Source: an uncultured Bdellovibrionales bacterium (GTDB lineage: Bacteria; Bdellovibrionota_C; UBA2361; OMII01). Taken from it: a DNA stretch of 64,000 bases. Position 1 is the first letter of the stretch. Each line of letters begins with the position of its first letter. The stretch lies in NCBI GenBank assembly GCA_964413875.1, contig CAYPUA010000007.1:45139-109138 (forward strand). The letters are read 5' to 3'. Made by a program: the position numbers and the translations under genes. This document shows, one piece after another, positions 16,295 to 32,455 of the stretch. The notes under the pieces are model-generated. The model saw nothing but the letters and a program-made list of their open reading frames with translations, did not search any database and was not told the DNA's origin.

Positions 16295-17383
16295 ATGGTT
16301 TATTCAGCAGCATTCTCGGCCGTCGGTGACTCGTTGTCTTCGCTCTCGGCTCCCTCTCTCTCTCGTAGCTCCTCTCCAGCTCAGTTCCTCAACATTCTTA
16401 GTGCTTGTCCCGAGATGCAGAAAATCTTCGGGGTAGTCGAGAAAGTCGCAAAGACTCGCTCAACAGTGCTGATTCTCGGCGAGAGCGGCACGGGGAAAGA
16501 GTTGGTAGCGCGCGCGCTGCATTCCCTCAGCGCACGCTCCGGTCGGCTCGTTCCGGTCAACTGCGGAGCAATCCCAGAGGATATCCTTGAGAGCGAACTG
16601 TTTGGCCACGAGAAGGGCGCCTTCACTGGCGCAGTTGCAAGCCGAGTTGGCCGTTTTCAGCTCGCCGATGGAGGAACAATCTTCCTCGATGAGATCGGAG
16701 AGATGAGCCCGAAGCTCCAAGTCAAGCTACTTCGAGTGCTGCAAGAGCGCAAAGTTGACCCAGTCGGGTCAACAAAATCGATTGACGTAGACGTGCGAGT
16801 AATAGCAGCAACTAACAAAGACCTAGCTGAGGAAGTAAAAGCCGGCAGGTTCCGTGAAGATCTCTTCTACAGGCTTCAGGTCGTGCCGGTCAGCTTGCCG
16901 CCCCTCAGAGAGCGTTTCGGAGACATTCAGCTCCTTGCGGAGCACTTCCTCCGCCGGCAAGCCGATGAGCTTGCGAAGCCGACTCTTTTCTTCTCTGACT
17001 CAACTCTCAGCGTGCTTAACCAGTACTCCTGGCCTGGCAACATTCGAGAGCTTGAGAATCTGGTTGAGCGAGTCGCAATCTTGAGCGAGGACGGCCCAAT
17101 TGAGCCCTCTCAGCTTCCGCCGCACCTGAACGAAACCAGGACGGTTGCCCCAACACACATGGATGACATGACCCTTCCGCCAATGGGTGTGGATTTCAAC
17201 GCGCTAATCGAGGAGTACGAGAATCGATTGATCTCAACGGCGCTCAATCAGACGGGCGGCAACAAGAAAGCAGCCGCGAAGCTGCTCGGACTAAACCGAA
17301 CCACACTTGTTGAGAAGATCAAGAAGAAGGGGCTCGAGGCGAAAATTGAAGTGTGCATCATCTCGGATGAGTCAAACGCGTAA
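16295..17383 (+). CDS. Sigma-54-dependent transcriptional activator (AAA+ plus Fis-type HTH) lacking any N-terminal receiver or sensory domain.
   Basis: Walker [16 protein letters not shown]; GAFTGA motif ([15 protein letters not shown]); arginine finger region; C-terminal [19 protein letters not shown]. Only a ~40-aa Ser-rich N-terminus precedes the AAA+ domain. Strong AAGGAAGG ribosome-binding site before the ATG. Confidence 0.85.
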
Positions 17384-17392
17384 GGGACAACG

Positions 17393-18319
17393 ATGTGCAC
17401 TAAAGGCAAAATTCTGTTCACCGCGCTCGCACGATTTGTGGCTGTGGCAGCCAGCGTTTCGCTCGGCAGCATAGCTGCTCCGCGATCCGCTGTGGCTCAG
17501 CATCCAGTGGACGTACAGCGGCTCAACGCAGATGGGGAGCACCTCAAGGCCCTTGCGATGTACGAGCTGCTGCCAACTCGGGCTGTGACCGTTGAAGCGC
17601 GTATCGCCGCCGCCAAGAGCTCCTGGGCGCTCGGCCTCAACAGAAGAGCCGCAGATGCATTTGACGCTCTTTTGCGCGACCGCTCGCTGTCAGGGGATAC
17701 GCGGGCCCGGCTCACGCTGTCACGGGGTGTGATAGAGTTTCAGGAGGAGCGATACCCAGAGGCGTCGTTGTTTGCGGAGAAGGCAGTGTCGCTTCTCCCT
17801 GAGCCCTCACCACTCCGGAGCCGAGCGTACCTGCTGTGGGGCCAGAGTCTCTCCCGCTCAAACGCGTACAGCTCGGGAGTTGAGAAGCTAGAGGCAGCAC
17901 TCCAGGAGGCTTCAGCGGGCGACAAGCCAGAGATACACTTCGCGATCGGCGCAGCAGAGATTCGGCTCGGCAGGTTTTCTGACGCAGAGCGGCACCTCAA
18001 AGCTATCCCCACCGATCACGAACGGGCCCCCGCAACAGTTCGGCTGCTTGCGACTATCGCCCTGGAAACACACCAGGAGGACCGAGCACGTTTCTGGATA
18101 GAGAAGGGGCGGAAAGACTACCCAGAGGCATTCATCGACAGCTGGGGCAATTACGGGCTACTTCAAGCTGCGCTCTCCAAGGGCGAGATGCCAGCAGCTC
18201 GGGACGTCCTCTCGGAAGCACAGAAGCAGTATCCACCCTCTGATCCGTGGCTCATCCTGATGCAGGCGGCACTGGAGCAAGCTGAGTGGAAACGCGAGCT
18301 GGAGGCGCAGCGACCATGA
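17393..18319 (+). CDS. Secreted/periplasmic tetratricopeptide (TPR) repeat protein.
   Basis: Sec-type signal peptide (hydrophobic core then AVAQ) followed by Ala/Leu-rich TPR-like helical repeats. Confidence 0.65.
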   Translation: MCTKGKILFTALARFVAVAASVSLGSIAAPRSAVAQHPVDVQRLNADGEHLKALAMYELLPTRAVTVEARIAAAKSSWALGLNRRAADAFDALLRDRSLSGDTRARLTLSRGVIEFQEERYPEASLFAEKAVSLLPEPSPLRSRAYLLWGQSLSRSNAYSSGVEKLEAALQEASAGDKPEIHFAIGAAEIRLGRFSDAERHLKAIPTDHERAPATVRLLATIALETHQEDRARFWIEKGRKDYPEAFIDSWGNYGLLQAALSKGEMPAARDVLSEAQKQYPPSDPWLILMQAALEQAEWKRELEAQRP

Positions 18320-19164
18320 GATCTACCCAGCTCTCTCAGCTCAAGGCCCCAACTCCTCCCCAGTCTGCGACCGCTCTGGCTCAGATGATTGAGCGTTTCA
18401 ATGAGAGCAGCTCGCGACTCGAAGTTCAGCACGCAGCAATCTTGCAAGAGGTTGAAGACTTAAAAGCTAAACTCCAGCGCAAGGAAGAGGAAGTGAAGCG
18501 AGCCGAGCGCCTGTCAATGTTAGGAGAGACCGCCGCAGCGCTGGCGCACGAGGTGCGTAACCCGCTCGGAGCTATCACGCTCTTCCTCTCGATGCTGAAG
18601 AGCGATATCTCCGACCGGCCTGGCGCCCTCGCGTTAGCAGAGGAGATTGAGAAGAGCGTTTCAAGCCTTAATCACGTTGTCTCCAACGTCTTGCACTTTG
18701 CAAAGCACAACAAGCTCTCCCTGGGCCCGGTCAACCTGCACTCCGTACTGCAGGAGGTTCGGCACCATTTCACAAGTCTCTACGGCACCAAAGCAACAGT
18801 AGAGCTAAGCCTGAGCGGAGCGCCATTTATCATCGCTGATGATAACGCCCTCCGTCAGTGCCTCTACAACCTTATCACGAACTCACTGCAGATCACCTCG
18901 TTCGCTGGCACCATCAAGATCGACGCGTCTGACGATAGCGCATCGGATGGAGTCCGAATGGTGGTGTCAGACAACGGGCCAGGCATTGCCGAAGATGTCC
19001 TGCCCCGGATCTTTGAGCCATTCGCATCGGGGCGCCGTGAGGGCACTGGGCTGGGGCTGTCGATTGTAAGGAGAATTATCGAAGGACACGGCGGAGAGAT
19101 CACGGCCCGAAATGCGGCTGGAGCTGAATTCGTCATCGTCTTGCCGAGAAGAGGAAAAAAGTAA
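18316..19164 (+). CDS. Cytoplasmic sensor histidine kinase with a coiled-coil N-terminus and no transmembrane segment.
   Basis: H-box LAHEVRNPLGAI; N-box; G-boxes DNGPGI and GTGLGLSIV. Overlaps the end of the TPR gene. Confidence 0.8.
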   Translation: MRSTQLSQLKAPTPPQSATALAQMIERFNESSSRLEVQHAAILQEVEDLKAKLQRKEEEVKRAERLSMLGETAAALAHEVRNPLGAITLFLSMLKSDISDRPGALALAEEIEKSVSSLNHVVSNVLHFAKHNKLSLGPVNLHSVLQEVRHHFTSLYGTKATVELSLSGAPFIIADDNALRQCLYNLITNSLQITSFAGTIKIDASDDSASDGVRMVVSDNGPGIAEDVLPRIFEPFASGRREGTGLGLSIVRRIIEGHGGEITARNAAGAEFVIVLPRRGKK

Positions 19165-19174
19165 GGACAGGAGA

Positions 19175-20650
19175 ATGAGTATGGACCTTAACAACACGTC
19201 AAATGAGCGTCTGGCACAGCCATCCCCGGCGCGAATCCTCATCGCTGACGATGACCCACACATGCAGCTCGCGATCAGCACCTGCTTGTCTCGCAAAGAG
19301 TACGAGCTCGTGATCGCCCCTAATGGCGTTGTAGCCCTTGAGCACCTCGAAAAAGGGGGGTTCGACCTCGTGCTCACCGACCAGCAGATGCCGGAGATGT
19401 CAGGTCTTGAGCTTTTGGCAGCGATGCAGAAGCGAAACATGGAAACGCCAGTCATTATGATCACCGCCTACGGCACCATCAACCAGGCCGTAGAGGCGAT
19501 GCAGAAGGGCGCATCCGACTTCATCACGAAGCCGTTCTCGGCCCAGGACTTGGAGCGCACGGTAGAGAGATGCTTAACGCCAGAGGCGCGCGAGTCTCGA
19601 AAGAGCATGGCTCACCAGCGCGGCGGCCGTCCGATCGTCACCAACGATCCGCTGATGATCCGAGTCCTGGAAGTCGCAGAGGCAGTTGCCCGAAGCGAAG
19701 CAACGGTTCTGATCCAGGGAGAGTCAGGCACTGGCAAGGAGCTGATTGCGCGATTTGTCCATGCCAGCAGCCCGCGGGCCCAGCAGGCGTTTGTTGCAGT
19801 TAACTGTGCGGCCCTGCCGGCAAGCCTGCTCGAAAGCGAGCTCTTCGGACATGAGAAGGGCGCCTTCACAGGGGCGCAAGCCCGCAAGATCGGAAAATTC
19901 GAGCTCGCCCACGGCGGCACGATTCTCCTCGACGAAATTTCTGAGATGGATCTAGCGCTTCAGGCAAAGCTGCTGCGAGTTCTTCAAGAGCGAGAAGTTG
20001 ACCGAGTAGGAGGCAAGGATCCGGTCTCGATCGACGTCCGAGTTCTTGCGACCACGAACCGAGACCTTGAGGATAGCGTCCGGGAAGGGAAGTTTCGTTC
20101 AGACCTGTACTATCGCCTCAACGTGATCCCGCTAACGCTCCCACCGCTGCGTGAGCGCGCAGCAGACATTAAGCTTCTGACCGAGCACTTCATGCGCCAG
20201 TATCTCGGCGACAATGCCGGCTCGCTCCCCTCGGAGGTTCTCGACTCCCTGCTGCAGCACTCGTGGCCGGGCAACGTTCGAGAGCTGCAGAATGCCGTGC
20301 AGCGAGCTGCGATTCTGTGTCGTGGCGGAACCCCTCGCCAATCGGACTTCCTGCTCTCCATGAGCCCATCAGAGCAGCTAAGCACGATGCGCTCGGAGGC
20401 TCCGAAGGCACGAAGCATCCATGACATGGTCGAAAAAGTGGTTGAGCAGCCGGGAGCGATCAATGCTTCGGGCCTCATGATCCGCTCTGGCGTGACTGTT
20501 CACGACATGGAGAAGGCGCTGATCCTTGAGACGTTGCGCACCACAAACAACAACCGCACAGAGGCAGCTAAGTTGCTCGGGATTAGTATCCGAACCCTCC
20601 GCAACAAGCTGCACGAGTACCGGGGAACAAGCCCAGGAGCAGAGGAGTAA
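19175..20650 (+). CDS. NtrC-family sigma-54-dependent response regulator (REC plus AAA+ plus HTH).
   Basis: Receiver domain ILIADDDPHM...DLVLTDQQMP; AAA+ [15 protein letters not shown]; GAFTGA; HTH NRTEAAKLLGISIRTLRNKL. Ribosome-binding site AAGGACAGGAG before the ATG. Confidence 0.85.
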   Translation: MSMDLNNTSNERLAQPSPARILIADDDPHMQLAISTCLSRKEYELVIAPNGVVALEHLEKGGFDLVLTDQQMPEMSGLELLAAMQKRNMETPVIMITAYGTINQAVEAMQKGASDFITKPFSAQDLERTVERCLTPEARESRKSMAHQRGGRPIVTNDPLMIRVLEVAEAVARSEATVLIQGESGTGKELIARFVHASSPRAQQAFVAVNCAALPASLLESELFGHEKGAFTGAQARKIGKFELAHGGTILLDEISEMDLALQAKLLRVLQEREVDRVGGKDPVSIDVRVLATTNRDLEDSVREGKFRSDLYYRLNVIPLTLPPLRERAADIKLLTEHFMRQYLGDNAGSLPSEVLDSLLQHSWPGNVRELQNAVQRAAILCRGGTPRQSDFLLSMSPSEQLSTMRSEAPKARSIHDMVEKVVEQPGAINASGLMIRSGVTVHDMEKALILETLRTTNNNRTEAAKLLGISIRTLRNKLHEYRGTSPGAEE

Positions 20651-22886: not shown

Positions 22887-22945
22887 AATAAATACCCTTC
22901 GGGCTAGTACGCTCCTTGCAAAACCGTCCCCCAGAGGTGGAACCT

Positions 22946-23356
22946 ATGAAGCTCTTAGACTCAATGTTTGACCGGACGGTGGGTGGCTTAACCCGCGCCA
23001 TGGACCTTACCTGGAAGCGTAACCAGGCGCTCACGTCGAACATCGCGAACGCCGAGACCCCGCAGTACCGCGCAGTCGATGTGAACTTCGGCAAGGAGCT
23101 CGACCGGGCTTTTGGAACCACCGCAGACACTGACTCTCTAACGAAGACTAACGCGGACCATCTCGATGTGTCGTCTAACGAGGGTGGCAAGTACTTCGCA
23201 GACGAGAGTGGCACCGAGAAGTCAGACGGAAACAACGTGGACCTTGATCTGCAGATGGGCCGACTGACTGAGAATAGCGCGGACTACATAAGTGCAGCAC
23301 GGCTAATCCGACGACAGATTGGGCTAGTGCGCACAGCGATACGTGAAGGGAGATAG
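22946..23356 (+). CDS. flgB: Flagellar basal-body rod protein FlgB.
   Basis: N-terminal rod motif LTSNIANAETPQYRA. ~136 aa. GAGGTGG ribosome-binding site. Confidence 0.85.
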   Translation: MKLLDSMFDRTVGGLTRAMDLTWKRNQALTSNIANAETPQYRAVDVNFGKELDRAFGTTADTDSLTKTNADHLDVSSNEGGKYFADESGTEKSDGNNVDLDLQMGRLTENSADYISAARLIRRQIGLVRTAIREGR

Positions 23357-23359
23357 CAT

Positions 23360-23788
23360 ATGTCAGACTTGGTAGAGGTAGTTGCATCAGCACTCAACGC
23401 AGCTCGCACGCGGGTTAATACTCTTTCAGCGAATCTTGCGAATGCCGAAACAACTCGCACTCCGGAAGGGGGACCGTACCGAGCACGTCATGTGGTGCAA
23501 GAGGCGGCAGATATGCCGGGCTCATTTTCAGAGGCTCTTGATGGCATGACTCTCAAGCGCCCGATGGTCTCGCAGATCATCGAAGATACTTCGGAGCCAC
23601 GTAAGGTGTACCAGCCTGGGCACCCCGACGCGGACCAGCAGGGGTTCGTAGCGTATCCAAATATCAACGTCGTGAGCACCATGACCGACCTGATGTCAGC
23701 CACTCGCCAGTACCAGTCGGCAGTTGCCGCGCTCGATTCGCACCGCGACCTGCGTGACGCTGCTTCGAAAATTCTCACGCAAGCCTAG
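23360..23788 (+). CDS. flgC: Flagellar basal-body rod protein FlgC.
   Basis: LSANLANAETTRT and C-terminal TDLMSATRQYQSAVAAL. Confidence 0.85.
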   Translation: MSDLVEVVASALNAARTRVNTLSANLANAETTRTPEGGPYRARHVVQEAADMPGSFSEALDGMTLKRPMVSQIIEDTSEPRKVYQPGHPDADQQGFVAYPNINVVSTMTDLMSATRQYQSAVAALDSHRDLRDAASKILTQA

Positions 23789-23796
23789 GAGCAGGT

Positions 23797-24114
23797 ATGT
23801 CGATTCAGGGCATTCAATCGCTTATTCAGCAGGTCCAGCAGGCACAGACGACCGGCGTTCAGAAGACGGACGGCGTGCAGGGCTCCTCTGCCGACAGCTT
23901 CGGCCAGATGCTGCAGAATGCGCTCCAGGAGGTGAATGACCTCCAGGGGCAAGCTGAGGACCAAATTGAGGGACTCACAACGAATCGGCCGGGGGTGACG
24001 CCACACAGTACGATGGTTGCCCTTGAGAAAGCTGATGTGGCGTTTCAGCTCATGTCTGCAATTCGCGGAAAGATCATTCGTGCATACGAAGAAGTAATCA
24101 GGACTCAGGTTTAA
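23797..24114 (+). CDS. fliE: Flagellar hook-basal body complex protein FliE.
   Basis: ~105 aa with the C-terminal FliE motif ALEKADVAFQLMSAIRGKIIRAYEEV. Confidence 0.8.
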   Translation: MSIQGIQSLIQQVQQAQTTGVQKTDGVQGSSADSFGQMLQNALQEVNDLQGQAEDQIEGLTTNRPGVTPHSTMVALEKADVAFQLMSAIRGKIIRAYEEVIRTQV

Positions 24115-24133: not shown

Positions 24134-25849
24134 GTGGCCCCATCCGTTGATCCGAAAGCGGTACTGTCGAGCCTTGTGGCCGGGTACCTAAAGCTCCCCC
24201 TCGCGCAGAAGGTTCTGTTTCCCTTCCTCGTCATCTTCTCAGTTGGCTCGATTGTGTACGTGTCGAAGCTGGCGACTCAGCCAGACTACACAGTCCTCTA
24301 CAGCGATCTGAGCTCAGGAGACGCCGCCGCAGTTGTTGAGCGGCTGAAAGAGGCACGGGCATCGTACCGCGTCGAAGGTGGAACGATCTCGGTGTCGCCC
24401 CCAGAGGCGGTGCACGAGCTTCGCCTGAGTCTCGCCTCAGAGGGCATTCCCAAAACGGGTAGCGTTGGTTTTGAGCTGTTTGACGGGACAAACTTTGCAA
24501 CGACGACCCTCGGCGAAATGGTCAAGAAACAGCGCGCTATCCAAGGCGAGCTGGAGCGCACTATCATGTCGCTCGATACGGTAGTTTCTGCGCGGGTCCA
24601 TATTTCGCAGCCGGAGAAGACAGTTTTTGCGAAGAGCGCCCAGGAGCCGTCGGCCTCAGTTCTTCTCAAGCTGCGCCCTGGCGCAGAGCTCGACAAGAAG
24701 CAGATTAGCGGCATATCCAACTTCGTTGCGAGCAGCGTTGAGGGCCTCAAGCCCCAGCACGTGACGATTATCGATATGTACGGCAACCTTCTCACGTCGG
24801 CAGAGCCAGAAGGGGGAGAGGGGCATCTCGGAGCGGACGCCGGCCGGCTCCTCTACATTCGCGAAGTTGAAAAGGGGTACGCGCAGCGTATCGAAGTTCT
24901 TCTCGCAAAAGTGCTCGGACCCGGCAGAGTTGTAGCGCGGGTAAACGCAGATATCGATTTCTCCTCAAGCGAGCGCGAGGAAGAGAGCTACGATCCTTCG
25001 GGGCAGGTAATTCGATCCGAAAGAACGGTGGAAGAGGGAGCAGCAGCCCAAGCTCGCGGAGGAATACCGGGCACGGTGTCCAACATCTCGAACGGTCCGC
25101 CCATCGTAAACCCTCCAGCCGGTGCACAGCAGCAGAATAATCGCTCAGAAAAGGTGAAGAACTTCGAAGTTTCGCGGGCAATCACGCGAAGCGCCCAAGC
25201 GCGCGGAAAGGTGGTTCGCCTCTCGGCAGGAGTTCTCGTTGACGGAAAGTACACCGAGATTTCACAGGTAGGCAGCGACGGCAAGCCAACAGGAAAGATG
25301 CTTAAGGAGTACACCCCGCTCACGCCAGAGATGATGTCGCAAGTCGAGGGCATCGTGAAGTCGGCCATCGGCTATGACACGAGCCGCGGAGACCTGGTAA
25401 CTGTGGAAAATGTTCCATTCTTCACGCCGGACGAGAGCCTTGCTGCTGAACTCGCCAAGGCCGATGACTCAGCCAAGTGGTATCGAATCGGCTCCATGGC
25501 AGTGCCAGTGTTGGCGCTGCTGCTCTTCGTGTTCGTGGTCTTACGGCCGATGGTTAAGTTCCTGACGAGCAGTTCGGACCCAGACGTTGACCTTGCACGA
25601 CTCCTCCCGTCGGAAGTCACCGATCTGGAGTCTCGTGCACAGGCGCCCGGGGGCCAACATGCGGCGGACAGCTCCGGGGCTGTTGGGGCCATCGAAGGGG
25701 GACGACGAGGCGGCGCTCTTGATCTGGAATCGTCGGTGGATCTTGAGCAGCTCGGAGAGATCATGGCCGAGAATTCCCGGCTTGTGAAGGAGAATCCGCA
25801 GCAGGCAGCGCTCTTGATTCGCTACTGGCTCAATGACGGGAGGCTCTAA
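24134..25849 (+). CDS. fliF: Flagellar M-ring protein FliF.
   Basis: 571 aa with two transmembrane segments flanking a large periplasmic YscJ/FliF domain, and a C-terminal cytoplasmic tail. Confidence 0.85.
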   Translation: MAPSVDPKAVLSSLVAGYLKLPLAQKVLFPFLVIFSVGSIVYVSKLATQPDYTVLYSDLSSGDAAAVVERLKEARASYRVEGGTISVSPPEAVHELRLSLASEGIPKTGSVGFELFDGTNFATTTLGEMVKKQRAIQGELERTIMSLDTVVSARVHISQPEKTVFAKSAQEPSASVLLKLRPGAELDKKQISGISNFVASSVEGLKPQHVTIIDMYGNLLTSAEPEGGEGHLGADAGRLLYIREVEKGYAQRIEVLLAKVLGPGRVVARVNADIDFSSSEREEESYDPSGQVIRSERTVEEGAAAQARGGIPGTVSNISNGPPIVNPPAGAQQQNNRSEKVKNFEVSRAITRSAQARGKVVRLSAGVLVDGKYTEISQVGSDGKPTGKMLKEYTPLTPEMMSQVEGIVKSAIGYDTSRGDLVTVENVPFFTPDESLAAELAKADDSAKWYRIGSMAVPVLALLLFVFVVLRPMVKFLTSSSDPDVDLARLLPSEVTDLESRAQAPGGQHAADSSGAVGAIEGGRRGGALDLESSVDLEQLGEIMAENSRLVKENPQQAALLIRYWLNDGRL

Positions 25850-25851
25850 CC

Positions 25852-26763
25852 GTGGAGCAGACAACTGACGCGCCGGAGGCTTTGGCTGCCGAAACAAAGT
25901 CGGAGACCCCGCGGCTTTCGGCCTATGCGCCAACTCCGTACGTCGATGAGCACTGGACTGTTCTTAATGCTGGAGAGGAGAGGCATGGATTCATGCCCCT
26001 TGAACTTTCAGCAGTGTCTGCATCTCTCCCGCAAGCTGATCCGATGTTTGAGGACTACACCAGTCAGGTAGCCGGGCGCTACGTAGTCGGCGAGCAGCTC
26101 GTGCGCGGCGGAAGAGGCGACAACGCGGGGCAGCGTGACGAGGGTGCAGCTTCCCGACATGGAGATTCGTTGCCAGAGCAAAGCTCAGCAGAGAGCCAAA
26201 ATGATGCTGATGTGATCGTTGTTGAAGCTTCTGGAATAGGAGCCGTTGAGCACGAGCGAGCGATAGCGGAGGCTCGAGCTGCGGCGCTGGCAGAAGGCAG
26301 GGAGGCTGCGCAGACAGATGCCAAGGCTCGTCTGGAGGCCCTTGAGGCCCGCTTCGCAGCTATGCTTGATGACCTCAAGACCCAGGTTGCAGAGAGCCTA
26401 GCAGCAGCAGAGGAGCGGGCCGCAGAGCTTGCTCTCTCTGTCGCGCGCAAGCTAATGGGAGCTGCCGCAGAATCGTCGCCTGAATACCTCAAGCCGCTGC
26501 TGAAGGAAGCGATCGCTGCGGCAGGAAACGCAGAGATCCGGCGAATCAAGGTTAGCCCAAAAGACTACGAGGCTCTCAAGGCTCTCCCAAGAGAGTCGCT
26601 CGGCGCCGGCAGCGCAGCGGGGTGGACCTTCGAGCCGGATGAGTCCATCCACATCGGGTGTGTCCTCGTCACAGCCGCTGGAGAGGTCGATTTCAATCTC
26701 GATAAGGCTTGGGAGCGAATTCGCAAGCAGGCCCTGCATCCGGTGGGAGCCACCGATGAGTAG
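25852..26763 (+). CDS. fliH: Flagellar assembly protein FliH (export ATPase regulator).
   Basis: Ala/Glu-rich coiled-coil centre; C-terminal FliH/YscL-like region RIKVSPKDYEAL...VTAAGEVDFNLDKAWERI. Lies immediately 5' of fliI. Confidence 0.7.
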   Translation: MEQTTDAPEALAAETKSETPRLSAYAPTPYVDEHWTVLNAGEERHGFMPLELSAVSASLPQADPMFEDYTSQVAGRYVVGEQLVRGGRGDNAGQRDEGAASRHGDSLPEQSSAESQNDADVIVVEASGIGAVEHERAIAEARAAALAEGREAAQTDAKARLEALEARFAAMLDDLKTQVAESLAAAEERAAELALSVARKLMGAAAESSPEYLKPLLKEAIAAAGNAEIRRIKVSPKDYEALKALPRESLGAGSAAGWTFEPDESIHIGCVLVTAAGEVDFNLDKAWERIRKQALHPVGATDE

Positions 26764-28066
26764 CGTATTTGAGCGGGCTCAAGAAGCCGTTAGCCGCGCC
26801 AGCCGGTGCGAGTTGCGGGGCTGCGTCACAGAGGTGCGCGGACTGCTAATCGAGGGAACTGGACCGCAAGTTCCACTCGGGTCGCACGTCACGATTCGTA
26901 ATGGCACCCAGGCTGTTCCCGCTCAGGTGATCGGCTTCCGCCAAGACAAGGTTCTCTTTATGCCCTTTGGGGAGATGCAAGGCATAGCCCCAGGCTTCGC
27001 CATCACTGCCAGCGAGTCAAGCTGCCATGTGCGCGTCTCGCACGAGCTAAAGGGGAGGGTAATCGACGCCCTCGGAAACCCGCTCGATGGTCGGGCTCTG
27101 CCAGTGATGGAGCACTCAGTGCCGCTGTACCGCGAGCCCCCGAATCCTGTGACACGCCAGCGCATTGCCGCGCCGCTCGATATCGGCGTTAAGGCAATCA
27201 ATGGGCTCCTGACGATCGGGCAGGGGCAGCGAGTCGGAATAATGGCAGGCTCTGGAGTAGGCAAGTCGACCCTGCTCGGCATGATCGCGCAAAAAGCTAC
27301 CAGTGACGTGAACGTCATCGCTCTGGTAGGGGAGCGTGGGCGAGAGGTCCGTGAATTTATCGAGCGCGACCTCGGTCCAGAGGGCCTGGCTCGCTCGGTT
27401 TTGGTAGTTGCAACTGGCGACCAGTCAGCTCTGCTTCGAATTCGCGCTGCATTCCTTGCGACTGCGATCGCTGAGTTCTTCCGAGATGAGGGACTGAGCG
27501 TCACGCTCATGCTCGATTCCGTGACCCGTCTCGCTATGGCGCAGCGTGAAGTAGGCCTCGCCGCAGGCGAGCCACCTAGCACCCGTGGCTATACACCGTC
27601 AGTATTTGCGATGCTCCCGAAGCTGCTGGAACGCGCTGGAACGTGTGCCGGCAAGGGGAGCATCACGGGCCTCTACACAGTGCTCGTTGAAGGTGACGAC
27701 ATGAACGAGCCCGTTGCGGATGCCGTTCGCGGAATCCTCGATGGCCACATCGTACTGAGCCGTAAATTAGCCGGTCGCGGCCATTACCCCGCAATCGACC
27801 CGCTCCAGAGCATCTCTCGAGTAATGTCAGATATTGTCCACCCGGAAGTAACCAGGATGGCGAACGAGGTGCGCGAAATCTTGGCTTCCTACCAGGACGC
27901 TGAAGACCTCATCACCATCGGCGCCTACAAGCCTGGCCAGAACTCTCGTGTCGATCGCGCTGTGCAGAAGATCGAGAAGGTACAGGAGTTTCTCCGTCAG
28001 CGTACCGACGAGCGAGAGCCAATCGAGAAGTGCTGGCTTTCGATGGGGCAAATCCTTCAGGGGTAA
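26756..28066 (+). CDS. fliI: Flagellum-specific ATP synthase FliI.
   Basis: Walker A GSGVGKSTLLGMIA, Walker B, F1/T3SS ATPase fold. ATG overlaps the fliH stop. Confidence 0.85.
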   Translation: MSSVFERAQEAVSRASRCELRGCVTEVRGLLIEGTGPQVPLGSHVTIRNGTQAVPAQVIGFRQDKVLFMPFGEMQGIAPGFAITASESSCHVRVSHELKGRVIDALGNPLDGRALPVMEHSVPLYREPPNPVTRQRIAAPLDIGVKAINGLLTIGQGQRVGIMAGSGVGKSTLLGMIAQKATSDVNVIALVGERGREVREFIERDLGPEGLARSVLVVATGDQSALLRIRAAFLATAIAEFFRDEGLSVTLMLDSVTRLAMAQREVGLAAGEPPSTRGYTPSVFAMLPKLLERAGTCAGKGSITGLYTVLVEGDDMNEPVADAVRGILDGHIVLSRKLAGRGHYPAIDPLQSISRVMSDIVHPEVTRMANEVREILASYQDAEDLITIGAYKPGQNSRVDRAVQKIEKVQEFLRQRTDEREPIEKCWLSMGQILQG

Positions 28067-28069
28067 TGC

Positions 28070-28501
28070 ATGAAGCGTTTCCGCTTTCGGCTTCAGCGAA
28101 TTCTCGATATCCGGGAACAGATTCGTGACGAGCTGCGTCAAGAACTTGTCCGAAAGAACCTCGCGAGGGACCACGAGCTGCGTGTTTTGGCAGAGTTAGA
28201 GGAGGAGTCGTTGCGTGTCATGATCCAGGAGGGTGGCACGTATTCTGCATCGGAGCTGGTGATGTTTGGCGACTACCGCCTACGGCTCAAGGTTCGTATC
28301 GAAGAGCAGCAAGTAAGGGTGTCTGTCGCCGTGCAGGAGGCTGACGAGGCGAAGGCTCGGTACGTAGAGGCGAGCAAAGAAGCCAAAGCTCTTGAGATGT
28401 TGCGGCAGAAGAGGAAAGCCGAGCACGATGAGCAGGCTCTCAAAGAAGAGGGAGCCCAGCTTGATGAGTTAGCGGTGCAGCGCGCACCGCGCCCGAGTTG
28501 A
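28070..28501 (+). CDS. fliJ: Flagellar export protein FliJ.
   Basis: ~143-aa all-helical coiled-coil protein (MKRFRFRLQRILDIRE...) directly after fliI. Confidence 0.7.
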   Translation: MKRFRFRLQRILDIREQIRDELRQELVRKNLARDHELRVLAELEEESLRVMIQEGGTYSASELVMFGDYRLRLKVRIEEQQVRVSVAVQEADEAKARYVEASKEAKALEMLRQKRKAEHDEQALKEEGAQLDELAVQRAPRPS

Positions 28502-28513
28502 GGATTACAAGGT

Positions 28514-29263
28514 ATGGCTGAGAAGCGATTGAGCAAGCAAGAGGCCCAGGATCTGTACGATAACTTGCAGCGTGCCGTCGGCACCATGATGGCTAAAGGC
28601 AAGGCTGCAGAGGCGAAAGCTGCGGCAGCGAAGACAGCAGCCCCGAAGGCGGCTCCGCGCCCAAAAGCCACTTCTTCGCCAGCCGCGTCGCCAGCGTTGC
28701 CAAGAGTTCGGCGCAGTCGTGGGCTCTCGGGAGAGGCTCTTGCGATTATGACAATCGCCGTCTTCTGTTGTGCCAAGGTAACGCTCTCTGCACTTGAGGC
28801 GAGTGGTATCGCGTCAGCTCCGCCAGCAGAAGCTGCTGTTGTTGCACAGCCGCGTGGGCCGCAGTGGAGCAAGGAGGAGGTAAAAGTCTTAACCGCGCTC
28901 GACTCACGCCGCGTGCAGCTCGAGGAGCGAGCCTCTCGGCTCGAGCAGCGTGAAACCGAGGCTGCCAGCCGAGACCGAGACCTTGCGGTCAAACTCACTG
29001 AGCTCAAGGACTTAACTGAGCGTCTTAAAGCTGAGCGTGAGAAGGGTGAGAAACAGCGCGACACGCAGCTCGATCAGCTTGCAAACGTATACGGCTCCAT
29101 GAATCCGCCCGAGGCTGCTCACCTGCTTGAGCAGCTCGACATCCAGGTCGCCCTCTCGCTCGTAGAGAGGATGCCTGAGAAGCGTATGGGGCAGATCCTC
29201 TCCCTCATGAATGCCCAGCGGGCCCTGGAGCTGACTAACCTGCTCTCGAAGCGTCGCTCATAG
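28514..29263 (+). CDS. MgtE_N-domain flagellar protein (B. subtilis YlxF/MotE-like), with a membrane anchor and coiled coil.
   Basis: C-terminal MgtE_N/FliG-like motif MNPPEAAHLLEQLD...ERMPEKRMGQILSLMNAQRA. Syntenic with ylxF, which follows fliJ in Bacillus fla/che operons. Confidence 0.5.
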   Translation: MAEKRLSKQEAQDLYDNLQRAVGTMMAKGKAAEAKAAAAKTAAPKAAPRPKATSSPAASPALPRVRRSRGLSGEALAIMTIAVFCCAKVTLSALEASGIASAPPAEAAVVAQPRGPQWSKEEVKVLTALDSRRVQLEERASRLEQRETEAASRDRDLAVKLTELKDLTERLKAEREKGEKQRDTQLDQLANVYGSMNPPEAAHLLEQLDIQVALSLVERMPEKRMGQILSLMNAQRALELTNLLSKRRS

Positions 29264-29409: not shown

Positions 29410-30417
29410 GTGGGGCTGCGCTATCCACGTATGACCGAATTTGACCCACAACGGATTCAAGAGAGCTTCTTCAGCCGCTACTGGCGTTGGGAGCTGTGTG
29501 CCGAAGACGGCTGTGCGGAGACGTGCAGCGAAGAGCTTGCGAAACGGCTGCCGCACATCGATCGCGCTTCCTGGCCCCAACGCTTTGCGCTGGGAGGGGT
29601 GTACGTGGGTGGTCGGCCGGTTTTGTCTGACTCTCCCGTAAATCCGCCGTGCAGGCTGGAGTACTACGAGCCAAAGTTTGACCCGCAGCGGGCAGCACAG
29701 TTTTATCCCCAATTCTCTCCCTCATGGATTCTGCTCGACCATTCGGACATCGGTGTTGCCTTCAAGCCAGCTGGGCTCCCGACAACCGCACCGCGCGACC
29801 AGCAGCAGTTCTACCTGCAGCGCTACCTTGAGCAGCACTACGCAGCGCCTGTCCACACGCCGTCGCGCCTCGACACCGCCGTTGCAGGATTGCTGCTCTT
29901 CTCGCGCTCAGCGCGCGGAAATCGGTGGTGCCAGAAGGCACAGGAGCGCCGCTTAGTTCGTAAGCTGTACCTGTGTGAGGTCTCGGGCGAGCCGCGAGCT
30001 GGGCAGACCAACGTCACGAGCCCCTTGGCCCGCGATGAGAGGCACCCTGTCCTGCGCCGAGTGGTTGAGACAGGGGGAGAAGATGCGTGGACACGAATCA
30101 CGCACCTCGGAGCGCTTAAGGTCTCAGGCCGGACGCTGCTTCAGGCTGAGCCTCTCACTGGCCGGACCCACCAGATACGGGTTCACTGCGCCTCTGAAGG
30201 GTGGCCTGTCGTGGGCGATCCGTTGTACGGCGGTCAGGAGGCTCCTGAGCTTCGTCTCGTTTCGTACGCCCTTGAGTTCTTTCATCCATTCCTGCAGCGG
30301 CAGATCTGGATACAACTACCGCTTGCCCTGCGGCCATCATGGATTCAAGATGCGGAGAAATACACCGCGCCGATTAGGCTTTCCGTAGACGGCTTGCATG
30401 AAAGCGATCCTCGTTGA
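29410..30417 (+). CDS. RluA-family pseudouridine synthase.
   Basis: Catalytic motifs HTPSRLDTAVAGLLLFS and GRTHQIRVH. Confidence 0.8.
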   Translation: MGLRYPRMTEFDPQRIQESFFSRYWRWELCAEDGCAETCSEELAKRLPHIDRASWPQRFALGGVYVGGRPVLSDSPVNPPCRLEYYEPKFDPQRAAQFYPQFSPSWILLDHSDIGVAFKPAGLPTTAPRDQQQFYLQRYLEQHYAAPVHTPSRLDTAVAGLLLFSRSARGNRWCQKAQERRLVRKLYLCEVSGEPRAGQTNVTSPLARDERHPVLRRVVETGGEDAWTRITHLGALKVSGRTLLQAEPLTGRTHQIRVHCASEGWPVVGDPLYGGQEAPELRLVSYALEFFHPFLQRQIWIQLPLALRPSWIQDAEKYTAPIRLSVDGLHESDPR

Positions 30418-32054: not shown

Positions 32055-32131
32055 GCGGGTGTAGCTCAGTTGGCTAGAGCGCTTCCTTGCCAAGGAAGAG
32101 GTCGAGAGTTCGAATCTCTTCACCCGCTCCA
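32055..32131 (+). tRNA. tRNA-Gly (anticodon GCC).
   Basis: Cloverleaf: acceptor GCGGGTG/CACCCGC; anticodon loop TTGCCAA; T-arm GGTCGAGAGTTCGAATCTCTTC; encoded CCA. Followed by a T-run. Confidence 0.85.
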
Positions 32132-32379: not shown

Positions 32380-32455
32380 GCGGGTGTAACTCAGTTGGTA
32401 GAGTACTTGCTTCCCAAGCAAGATGCCGCGGGTTCGAGCCCCGTCGCCCGCTCCA
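32380..32455 (+). tRNA. tRNA-Gly (anticodon CCC).
   Basis: Acceptor GCGGGTG/CGCCCGC (one G-U pair); anticodon loop TTCCCAA; T-arm GGGTTCGAGCCCCG; encoded CCA and a T-run. Confidence 0.85.

Follow-up and report, generated by a model that had tools for sequence, protein, structure and literature searches.

The flagellar gene cluster described here passes directly from fliF, which encodes the MS ring, to fliH, and so lacks the fliG gene that canonical relatives carry at this position. This raises the question of whether the organism dispenses with FliG, obtains its function from another protein of the locus or encodes it elsewhere in its genome. We address this by examining the locus itself, the corresponding loci of relatives and the fliG genes that those relatives carry at other sites.

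The operon and its relatives across Bdellovibrionota

ORF calls, together with Pfam and NCBIfam searches, give the order flgB-flgC-fliE-fliF-fliH-fliI-fliJ, then the gene of a putatively membrane-anchored MgtE_N protein and then rluA (Table 1), all within a window of 64 kb, by which we mean the whole stretch of DNA that was analysed. The initial annotation had proposed the same order, had noted that the cluster ends after a ylxF-like gene, with rluA next and fliK, flgD and flgE absent, and had seen no room for fliG; the Pfam searches and the mere 2 nt from the stop codon of fliF to the start codon of fliH confirm each of these points. No other flagellar structural gene was found by Pfam among the approximately 40 larger ORFs of the window that were scanned. 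Upstream of the operon lies a sigma-54 regulatory block, which starts with an enhancer-binding protein gene in a position shared by fliG-less and canonical relatives, and the position of the TPR-repeat gene is conserved in loci L003, L004 and L058.

Table 1. Genes and junction of the flagellar locus and its regulatory block (positions are those of the window)
Feature	Position	Strand	Evidence
Sigma-54 enhancer-binding protein without receiver domain (FleQ/FlrA-like)	16295..17383	+	Pfam Sigma54_activat, 236.8 bits; HTH_8
TPR-repeat protein, between both sigma-54 regulators	17393..18319	+	Pfam TPR_16, TPR_14
Histidine kinase (FlrB/FleS-like)	18286..19164	+	Pfam HisKA, HATPase_c
Response regulator with sigma-54 activator domain (FlrC/FleR-like)	19112..20650	+	Pfam Response_reg, Sigma54_activat, HTH_8
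flgB, proximal rod	22916..23356	+	NCBIfam TIGR01396, 93.7 bits (cut-off 59)
flgC, proximal rod	23360..23788	+	NCBIfam TIGR01395, 127.5 bits (cut-off 102)
fliE, MS-ring/rod adaptor	23797..24114	+	Pfam PF02049, 78.7 bits; TIGR00205 above curated cut-off
fliF, MS ring, 571 aa, full length	24134..25849	+	TIGR00206, 343 bits, profile positions 18-553 of 555
fliF-fliH junction, 2 nt	25850..25851	+	ORF coordinates; canonical relatives have fliG (~1 kb) at the same position
fliH, export ATPase regulator/stator	25852..26763	+	Pfam PF02108, 51.5 bits
fliI, flagellar export ATPase	26756..28066	+	FliI/YscN subfamily TIGR01026, 586 bits (cut-off 379.5)
fliJ, export chaperone/stalk	28070..28501	+	TIGR02473, 66.7 bits (cut-off 50)
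E-ring family gene (MotE/FlbB/FlgY/YlxF-like; predicted)	28514..29263	+	Pfam MgtE_N PF03448, 29.6 bits (cut-off 25.9)
RluA-type pseudouridine synthase, non-flagellar, marks the operon 3' end	29410..30417	+	Pfam PseudoU_synth_2

Identical proteins in the same gene order are encoded on an independent Logan contig. The fliG-less order is not an effect of chance or of assembly, because it recurs both on this contig and in some 43 other species-representative genomes. A small difference concerns the response regulator, for which the gene call on Logan contig L001 places the start at the equivalent of window position 19181 rather than at 19112, the start of the window ORF.

A fliG gene next to fliF is absent from all 43 species-representative loci whose FliF is at least about 49% identical to that of the window, and none was found in the flanks of these loci, which cover up to 10 kb on each side and less at contig ends. 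The order fliF-fliG-fliH is kept in nine more distant Bdellovibrionota and in one Nitrospirae MAG, a count that includes loci showing fliF-fliG only, where the contig stops before fliH. The distance between fliF and fliH separates the two groups, running from -1 to 102 nt in those loci of the fliG-less clade in which both genes were mapped and from 937 to 1061 nt in the canonical loci. In a neighbour-joining tree of FliI the fliG-less loci form one clade that is sister to the canonical loci, with the exception of L038, which stands on a separate basal branch. The clade is a large and well sampled group of mostly freshwater, uncultured Bdellovibrionota: at least 120 FliF matches were listed, all at least 63% identical to the query, and two MAGs, CANLJX01 (ZE-3nov15-121) and CAZZJR01, encode a FliF that is 97-98% identical to that of the window. 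In a further member of the clade, JBMNLI01, the fliF locus is found on a contig of 350 kb.

The canonical arrangement is exemplified by L058 (CAYOOT010000003.1), which reads EBP-TPR-HK-RR54-flgB-flgC-fliE-fliF-fliG-fliH-fliI-fliJ-MgtE_N-fliK-flgD-flgE. The Bacillus subtilis fla/che operon begins with this order, and the Borrelia flgB operon has it as well; ylxF follows fliJ in B. subtilis. The window shares with L058 the sigma-54 regulatory block upstream, the gene order and the E-ring/ylxF gene after fliJ, and its FliI and FliF are respectively 61-65% and 45-50% identical to those of the canonical Bdellovibrionota cluster. It differs in two respects, the lack of fliG between fliF and fliH and the lack of the fliK-flgD-flgE tail behind the E-ring gene, whose place is taken by rluA in many loci of the clade and by other housekeeping genes elsewhere.

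Stand-alone fliG genes in relatives

A canonical FliG profile, used as query, retrieved a second FliG family, at 65-70% identity, one member of which (P0246) is encoded by a stand-alone fliG on a contig of 153 kb. At the 90% level, more than 120 clusters share at least 78% identity with P0246, so that this family is sampled to a depth that matches that of the FliF clade. All of the listed matches to the stand-alone family have the FliG_N/FliG_M/FliG_C architecture (precomputed Pfam assignments PF14842, PF14841 and PF01706). In an alignment with an approximate E. coli FliG reference, the stand-alone proteins retain both the EHPQ and MFxF motifs as well as the charged positions of the torque helix, and the Gly-Gly linker is kept in all of those aligned except P0307, which has VG.

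The surroundings of these genes are conserved. In six of seven sequence-distinct contexts an APH and/or NTP_transferase gene group lies divergently upstream of fliG (the P0246 contig, L061, L063, L064, L066/L067 and L070/L071), and in the seventh, L060, an enoyl-CoA hydratase gene occupies the upstream position. The group opposite fliG comprises NTP_transferase, PapZ_C and APH genes, which we take to be amgK/murU-like and to serve peptidoglycan recycling. Neither fliF nor fliH was found near fliG in any of the seven contexts, and no contig bearing both the fliF operon and a stand-alone fliG was seen among the FliF and FliG matches listed. Other flagellar genes do occur in the vicinity, with flgE about 9 kb from one stand-alone fliG and two flagellin genes 3.4 kb from another.

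The two loci occur together in one MAG, GCA_003696425.1, which holds the P0307 fliG on RFHI01000165.1 and a fliG-less fliF-fliH locus (L045) on RFHI01000216.1, the GC contents of the two contigs being 45.6% and 45.4%; the link rests on this one MAG and its correct binning, and its FliF is only 55% identical to that of the window. The initial annotation had offered as one reading a split regulon, in which the rotor/switch gene is encoded elsewhere, and both this MAG and the full-length stand-alone genes of other relatives bear it out for the clade. With fliG at a second locus in relatives, and once in the same MAG, the order is, in the words of that annotation, merely an organisational variant. 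Closer to the window, amino-acid composition (GARP/FYMINK ratio) pointed to P0260 and P0355 as candidates for the FliG of its high-GC subclade. Both are encoded by stand-alone genes in the customary surroundings, and P0260 lies on contigs of 60% GC, which is compatible with that subclade, but the connection of either to the window is no more than suggestive.

Promoters were sought upstream of flgB and of the stand-alone fliG genes. No convincing sigma-54 site (GG-N10-GC) was found upstream of flgB in the window's subclade, one other subclade has a good conserved site (CGGCnCTTGCATTGCA) in this position, and sigma-54-like sites occur in canonical loci. Upstream of the stand-alone fliG genes that were looked at there was no sigma-54 site, and no clear sigma-28 motif was recognised by eye; a promoter could not be assigned to these genes.

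We consider it very probable that the window holds an ordinary functional flagellar operon whose fliG has moved elsewhere in the genome, that is, a variant of gene order and not a machine that lacks FliG. The locus would then be a normal class-II-type flagellar operon, placed downstream of the conserved sigma-54 regulatory block, whose products would supply the proximal rod, the MS ring, the FliH/I/J export ATPase complex and a periplasmic E-ring protein. The common ancestor of the clade may have possessed the cluster flgB-flgC-fliE-fliF-fliG-fliH-fliI-fliJ-ylxF-fliK-flgD-flgE, from which a first break would have cleanly excised fliG from between fliF and fliH and a second would have detached the fliK-flgD-flgE tail. 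fliG would have persisted on its own at another site, which is conserved and where it faces away from the APH/PapZ_C/NTP_transferase group, and the FliG made from there would still assemble onto an unchanged FliF C-terminus and build the top of the C-ring in the normal way. We infer that such a gene is present in the genome from which the window comes, that the relocation was a single ancestral event and that the flagellum is functional.

The location of the stand-alone gene among non-flagellar genes would also agree with loss of the native fliG and its replacement by a horizontally acquired gene. Nevertheless, the stand-alone FliG proteins make up one clade, whose sister is canonical Bdellovibrionota FliG, mirroring the FliI tree; the GC3 of fliG, from 0.28 to 0.72, tracks the overall GC of its own contig, from 36% to 60%; and the conservation of the flanking gene group in six of the seven contexts points to one old event. 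We regard such a transfer as very unlikely.

Unlikely alternatives: loss or replacement of FliG

If FliG were truly lost, the locus would encode either a type III export apparatus derived by reduction from a flagellum or a structure that does not rotate, in both cases with no C-ring rotor, and a remodelled partial flagellar or export apparatus was the other reading of the initial annotation. Two features of the locus agree with it. The first is the absence of fliK, flgD and flgE from the cluster, in addition to fliG, and the second is the absence of any FliG signal from the window: with all filters disabled, a FliG HMM returned nothing at E <= 10 from the stop-to-stop segments of 30 aa or more in the six frames of the whole 64 kb, and no fliG was found elsewhere in the window.

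The properties of the operon and of its relatives, on the other hand, speak for a flagellum. The rod genes flgB, flgC and fliE are intact, and clade contigs carry flgE and flagellin genes close to stand-alone fliG. Between the fliG-less and canonical clades the final 21 residues of FliF (VKENPQQAALLIRYWLNDGRL) hardly vary, and the C-terminal motif of the window protein is identical to that of fliG-adjacent relatives. In model organisms this segment of FliF binds FliG_N, and such invariance would be unexpected had its partner vanished. Since the order is, moreover, common to some 43 species, among whose relatives full-length stand-alone fliG genes are found, one of them in the same MAG, we consider the loss of FliG highly improbable and the export-apparatus reading unsupported.

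A non-flagellar type III secretion system was rejected on the presence of flgB, flgC and fliE and on the scores of the NCBIfam models, the flagellar ones exceeding the injectisome ones in all comparisons for the locus. The injectisome models remain below their cut-offs (SctJ 70.7 bits against 161.95, SctL 31.8 against 78.7 and SctN 561.8 against 604.75), and FliI_clade2 scores 616.8 on the window FliI, just below its cut-off of 629.8 and above SctN. Within the export module, FliH (PF02108) and FliJ (TIGR02473) exceed their cut-offs and FliI exceeds that of the FliI/YscN subfamily.

A substitute for FliG could in principle reside in the protein encoded behind fliJ, in which a putative membrane helix near residues 75-100 precedes a helical, charged linker, and an MgtE_N (ARM-like) head forms the C-terminal part; the hydrophobic stretch ALAIMTIAVFCCAKVTLSAL and the charged helical region are read from the translation, and the PF03448 match spans residues 187-245. 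The E-ring proteins MotE, FlbB, FlgY and YlxF form a strongly divergent family (COG3334) whose head domain is periplasmic and lies around the MS-ring (PMC13023049). To the plan of this family, an N-terminal membrane anchor or signal peptide, a long coiled-coil linker and a periplasmic head, the window protein conforms in its C-terminal MgtE_N head and in the position of its gene behind fliJ, and would probably conform in its putative anchor and helical linker, but it differs in that some 75 residues precede the putative membrane helix. The match to the spirochaete FlbB equivalog is weak and below the cut-off (NF047368 collar_FlbB, 29 bits against 110, E = 8e-7), as would be expected of a family described as highly divergent (PMC13023049). 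Judged by these sequence features, the protein appears to be a periplasmic E-ring family member; it is not a substitute for FliG, because the gene is equally present behind fliJ in canonical loci that keep fliG, such as L058; that it could not replace FliG had already been supposed.

The remaining source of FliG within the locus would be a cryptic domain fused to FliF or FliH. FliH models match only residues ~135-295 of the window FliH, and its N-terminal third is variable, the first ~130 residues having no family match in Pfam. The FliG Pfam families do not match the window FliF or FliH, however; profile-profile comparison (hhalign) of a FliG alignment with alignments of clade FliH and FliF gives probabilities of 0.3% and 0.9%, respectively; and FliF matches the FliF model over its whole length and has no additional domain. 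Together with the unfiltered six-frame search, these negatives lead us to reject a cryptic FliG in either protein and uphold the earlier judgement that a fusion was unlikely. Although MgtE_N and FliG domains have an ARM-like fold in common (PMC13023049) and the MgtE_N protein shows a weak local match to the FliG middle domain (hhalign, pairwise E = 0.025), supply of FliG function from within the locus is extremely improbable, since an E-ring head in the periplasm would be separated by the membrane from the side on which it is needed, and the protein has no torque helix.

Precedent and significance

A fliG distant from fliF has a parallel in Sinorhizobium meliloti, where the motA-fliM-fliN-fliG operon lies away from fliF. 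Such an operon has been proposed for this species and for related Rhizobiales (PMC2651895), which provide an earlier example of a working flagellum in which fliG does not adjoin fliF. The two arrangements differ in that the Rhizobiales gene stays with motor and switch genes, whereas that of the present clade is alone among non-flagellar genes, beside the APH/PapZ_C/NTP_transferase group.

Relocation may conceivably uncouple the supply of the rotor/switch from the synthesis of the MS-ring and export gate, and so make the amount of available FliG a checkpoint of flagellar assembly with its own regulation, or a clutch-like control, although we think this unlikely. The setting for such control would be an uncultured and presumably predatory freshwater clade, in which the new neighbourhood of fliG is conserved and no sigma-54 site was found for it.

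The import for flagellar biology is small, as the separation of fliG from fliF has precedents and every part belongs to a known family. Taken as a pair, the fliF-fliH junction and the site of the stand-alone fliG constitute a clean synapomorphy of a large, uncultured freshwater clade of Bdellovibrionota. For annotation, a fliG-less operon is no ground on which to infer non-motility or a reduced flagellum, and for the lineage as a whole the adjacency of fliF and fliG, together with any translational coupling that it provides, is dispensable.

The flagellar operon and its flanks

The flagellar genes of the window, delineated by an ORF map together with Pfam and NCBIfam scans, form a single co-directional run, an identical copy of which is found on an independent Logan contig. 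The gene order without fliG described in the initial annotation is reproduced exactly by the ORF map, the domain scans and the spacing of 2 nt from the stop codon of fliF to the start codon of fliH. The FliG families gave no match in the window FliF or FliH in the Pfam and NCBIfam scans, the six-frame search proposed earlier, run across the window with a FliG HMM and filters off, gave nothing at E <= 10, and FliH and FliF, when their alignments were compared profile to profile with one of FliG, matched it with probabilities of 0.3% and 0.9%, respectively. Since all of these searches were negative, the original observation is upheld, as is its judgement that a FliG fusion is unlikely. No further flagellar structural genes were found among the larger window ORFs scanned with Pfam.

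Features of the window, with the evidence for each
Feature	Position	Strand	Evidence or remark
ORF, 347 aa	10284-11327	-	IS200-like Y1 transposase domain (PF01797, 27 bits)
sigma-54 activator without receiver domain	16295-17383	+	first gene of regulatory block
ORF, 422 aa	20665-21933	+	weak GDSL-lipase match (23 bits, below cut-off)
flgB	22916-23356	+	ORF map, Pfam/NCBIfam
flgC	23360-23788	+	ORF map, Pfam/NCBIfam
fliE	23797-24114	+	ORF map, Pfam/NCBIfam
fliF	24134-25849	+	TIGR00206, whole profile aligned, 343 bits
fliH	25852-26763	+	FliH models, residues ~135-295 only
FliH residues 1-135	25852-26250		no match to any family
fliI	26756-28066	+	ORF map, Pfam/NCBIfam
fliJ	28070-28501	+	ORF map, Pfam/NCBIfam
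MgtE_N protein, 249 aa	28514-29263	+	Pfam MgtE_N
RluA-type pseudouridine synthase	29410-30417	+	ORF map, Pfam/NCBIfam
two tRNA-Gly (GCC, CCC anticodons)	32055-32131 and 32380-32455	+	~2 kb downstream of operon

FliH, whose N-terminal third is the part without a family match, is much less conserved than any other product of the operon (24-51% identity beyond the nearest relatives); its C-terminal domain is conserved, but its overall length varies within the clade between about 259 and 362 aa. In the MgtE_N protein a hydrophobic helix at residues ~75-100 and a helical, charged region precede the C-terminal MgtE_N head, and NCBIfam gives a weak match to FlbB. A 2026 review (PMC13023049) places proteins of this kind, among them MotE, FlbB, FlgY and the YlxF of B. 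subtilis (COG3334), in a periplasmic E-ring around the MS-ring, and mentions such a ring in the motors of Bdellovibrio bacteriovorus. It had been thought noteworthy that this gene closes a locus lacking FliG; the same gene follows fliJ in canonical loci (fliF-fliG-fliH) and its presence here is thus unrelated to the missing fliG.

Upstream of the operon, Pfam reveals a conserved regulatory block in which the sigma-54 activator is followed by a TPR protein, then a histidine kinase, then a response regulator that itself carries a sigma-54 activator domain; the GDSL-like ORF and mtgA lie downstream. This ORF, lying between the response regulator and mtgA, occurs in L005-L008 (58-83% identity), the nearest relatives of the window, but in no other member of the clade, and so appears to have entered the regulatory-flagellar region recently. 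A sigma-54-type promoter, CGGCnCTTGCATTGCA, is conserved at -32 to -54 of flgB in one subclade (L039, L045, L027, L028 and L024), and sigma-54-like sites are also present in canonical loci. Within 250 nt upstream of flgB, no GG-N10-GC site as good as this one was found in the window's own subclade; where the site lies in the former subclade, the window reads GGGCCAAAAAATTGACA. Elsewhere in the window, the 347-aa ORF may encode a Y1 transposase, either REP-associated or domesticated.

Distribution of the gene order in Bdellovibrionota

At least 120 protein clusters among the matches listed contain a FliF at least 63% identical to that of the window, and three long contigs of other assemblies carry the same order, likewise without fliG. 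A scan of species-representative genomes yielded 53 loci, mostly from MAGs titled Bdellovibrionota, Bdellovibrionales or Oligoflexia, many of them of lake origin (Mendota and Zurich among others), and onto all of these we mapped the window proteins and a FliG query. In every one of the 43 loci with a FliF at least ~49% identical to the window's, fliG is not adjacent to fliF, nor was it found in the fetched flanks (up to 10 kb each side); the fliF-fliH gap, where both genes mapped, lies between -1 and 102 nt. The order fliF-fliG-fliH, shortened to fliF-fliG if the contig stops there, occurs in nine more distant Bdellovibrionota and one Nitrospirae MAG; the gap in canonical loci is 937-1061 nt and is occupied by fliG.

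A neighbour-joining tree of FliI places the fliG-less loci in one clade, sister to the canonical loci, with the exception of L038 (JBIIDM010000014.1, 10363-11407 and downstream), a basal member branching separately from both. Its genes between fliF and fliI, and after fliI, were undetected by tblastn with the window FliH and FliJ, and it may represent an intermediate or strongly diverged arrangement. GC content across the clade runs from ~30% to ~58% with the flagellar order kept (L022, L031, L034, L037 and L041 versus the window, L005-L008 and L023), which is unusually broad for a group that one rearrangement defines.

The canonical locus L058 (CAYOOT010000003.1) displays the complete, presumably ancestral arrangement, in which an enhancer-binding protein, TPR protein, histidine kinase and sigma-54 response regulator precede flgB-flgC-fliE-fliF-fliG-fliH-fliI-fliJ-MgtE_N-fliK-flgD-flgE. 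Compared with this, two differences define the window's clade: the absence of fliG between fliF and fliH, and that of the fliK-flgD-flgE tail after the MgtE_N gene.

Stand-alone fliG genes of relatives

A profile built from eight aligned canonical Bdellovibrionota FliG proteins recovered, below the canonical matches, a second FliG group at 65-70% identity. One member, P0246, is encoded on a 153 kb contig between an NTP_transferase gene (upstream, opposite strand) and Yip1 (downstream), with flgE ~9 kb away and neither fliF nor fliH nearby. A search with P0246 gave at least 120 clusters at least 78% identical among the matches listed, a sampling depth that resembles that of the FliF clade. All six further members examined are likewise stand-alone, giving seven sequence-distinct contexts, six of which have a divergent upstream group of APH-type kinase, PapZ_C protein and/or NTP_transferase, which we take to be amgK/murU-like. 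Its composition varies, with NTP_transferase alone beside P0246 and APH alone in L063, where two genes for flagellin and one for a lytic transglycosylase lie 3-5 kb downstream of fliG; in the seventh context, L060, an enoyl-CoA hydratase gene takes its place. No sigma-54 site was found upstream of any stand-alone fliG examined, and no description of a stand-alone fliG beside such a group was found in the literature searched.

The key link between the two kinds of locus is a single MAG, GCA_003696425.1, which encodes the FliG P0307 on RFHI01000165.1 and the fliG-less locus L045 on RFHI01000216.1, at similar GC (45.6% and 45.4%). This MAG, the source of L045 and L060, is titled 'Candidatus Dadabacteria bacterium J046', a label that is probably a misclassification, as its FliF, FliI and FliG sequences nest within the Bdellovibrionota clade. 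JGI metagenome 3300044622, from which the fliG-less MAGs L009 and L032 derive, also yielded two more contigs with a stand-alone fliG; neither of two FliG candidates chosen by composition could be tied to the window's MAG.

Stand-alone FliG proteins retain the EHPQ and MFxF motifs and the charged torque-helix residues, and all those aligned except P0307 retain the Gly-Gly linker. Four (P0259, P0260, P0270 and P0307; 357-361 aa) are called with N-terminal extensions of ~24-28 residues, which probably reflect wrongly assigned start codons rather than a new domain, since conservation in the alignment begins at an internal Met. About 10 kb from a stand-alone fliG, L061 (JAGFJO010000044.1, 1-890) encodes a YscJ_FliF-family protein of 258 aa, truncated by the end of the locus, and beside it a sigma-70-family factor of 251 aa that has regions r2 and r4; a BON-domain protein that matches YscD faintly is encoded in the vicinity. 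Either a second SctJ-like ring protein, of non-flagellar kind, or the setting of a FliA-type sigma factor may be represented here.

A probable relocation of fliG and its alternatives

The final 21 residues of FliF (VKENPQQAALLIRYWLNDGRL), a segment that in model organisms folds together with FliG_N, hardly vary in either the fliG-less or the canonical clade, the ~40 preceding residues varying freely, and conservation of this kind would be expected only if a FliG partner had been retained. That the flagellar operon of the window is an ordinary one, belonging to a lineage whose regulon is split, is very probable; this is the first of the two readings offered initially, and the clade-wide stand-alone fliG and the P0307/L045 link support it. 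Vertical descent with a single fliG relocation is the simplest account. That fliG was instead regained by horizontal transfer is improbable, given the congruent trees, in which stand-alone FliG is monophyletic and sister to canonical Bdellovibrionota FliG, mirroring FliI, and given that third-position GC of fliG tracks the GC of its own contig. True loss of FliG is slightly less probable still; against it, and against the second initial reading of a FliG-less, remodelled export apparatus, which we reject, stand the clade-wide stand-alone genes, their co-occurrence with a fliG-less locus in one MAG and the invariant FliF tail. A FliG hidden within the window's locus, or a substitute for it there, is very improbable in view of the negative six-frame and profile-profile searches and of the description of E-ring proteins as periplasmic (PMC13023049).

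The proposed motA-fliM-fliN-fliG operon of Sinorhizobium meliloti and related Rhizobiales likewise lies apart from fliF. The stand-alone fliG arrangement, fixed in a large uncultured freshwater clade of Bdellovibrionota, amounts to a variant gene order in a system that is itself fully recognisable.
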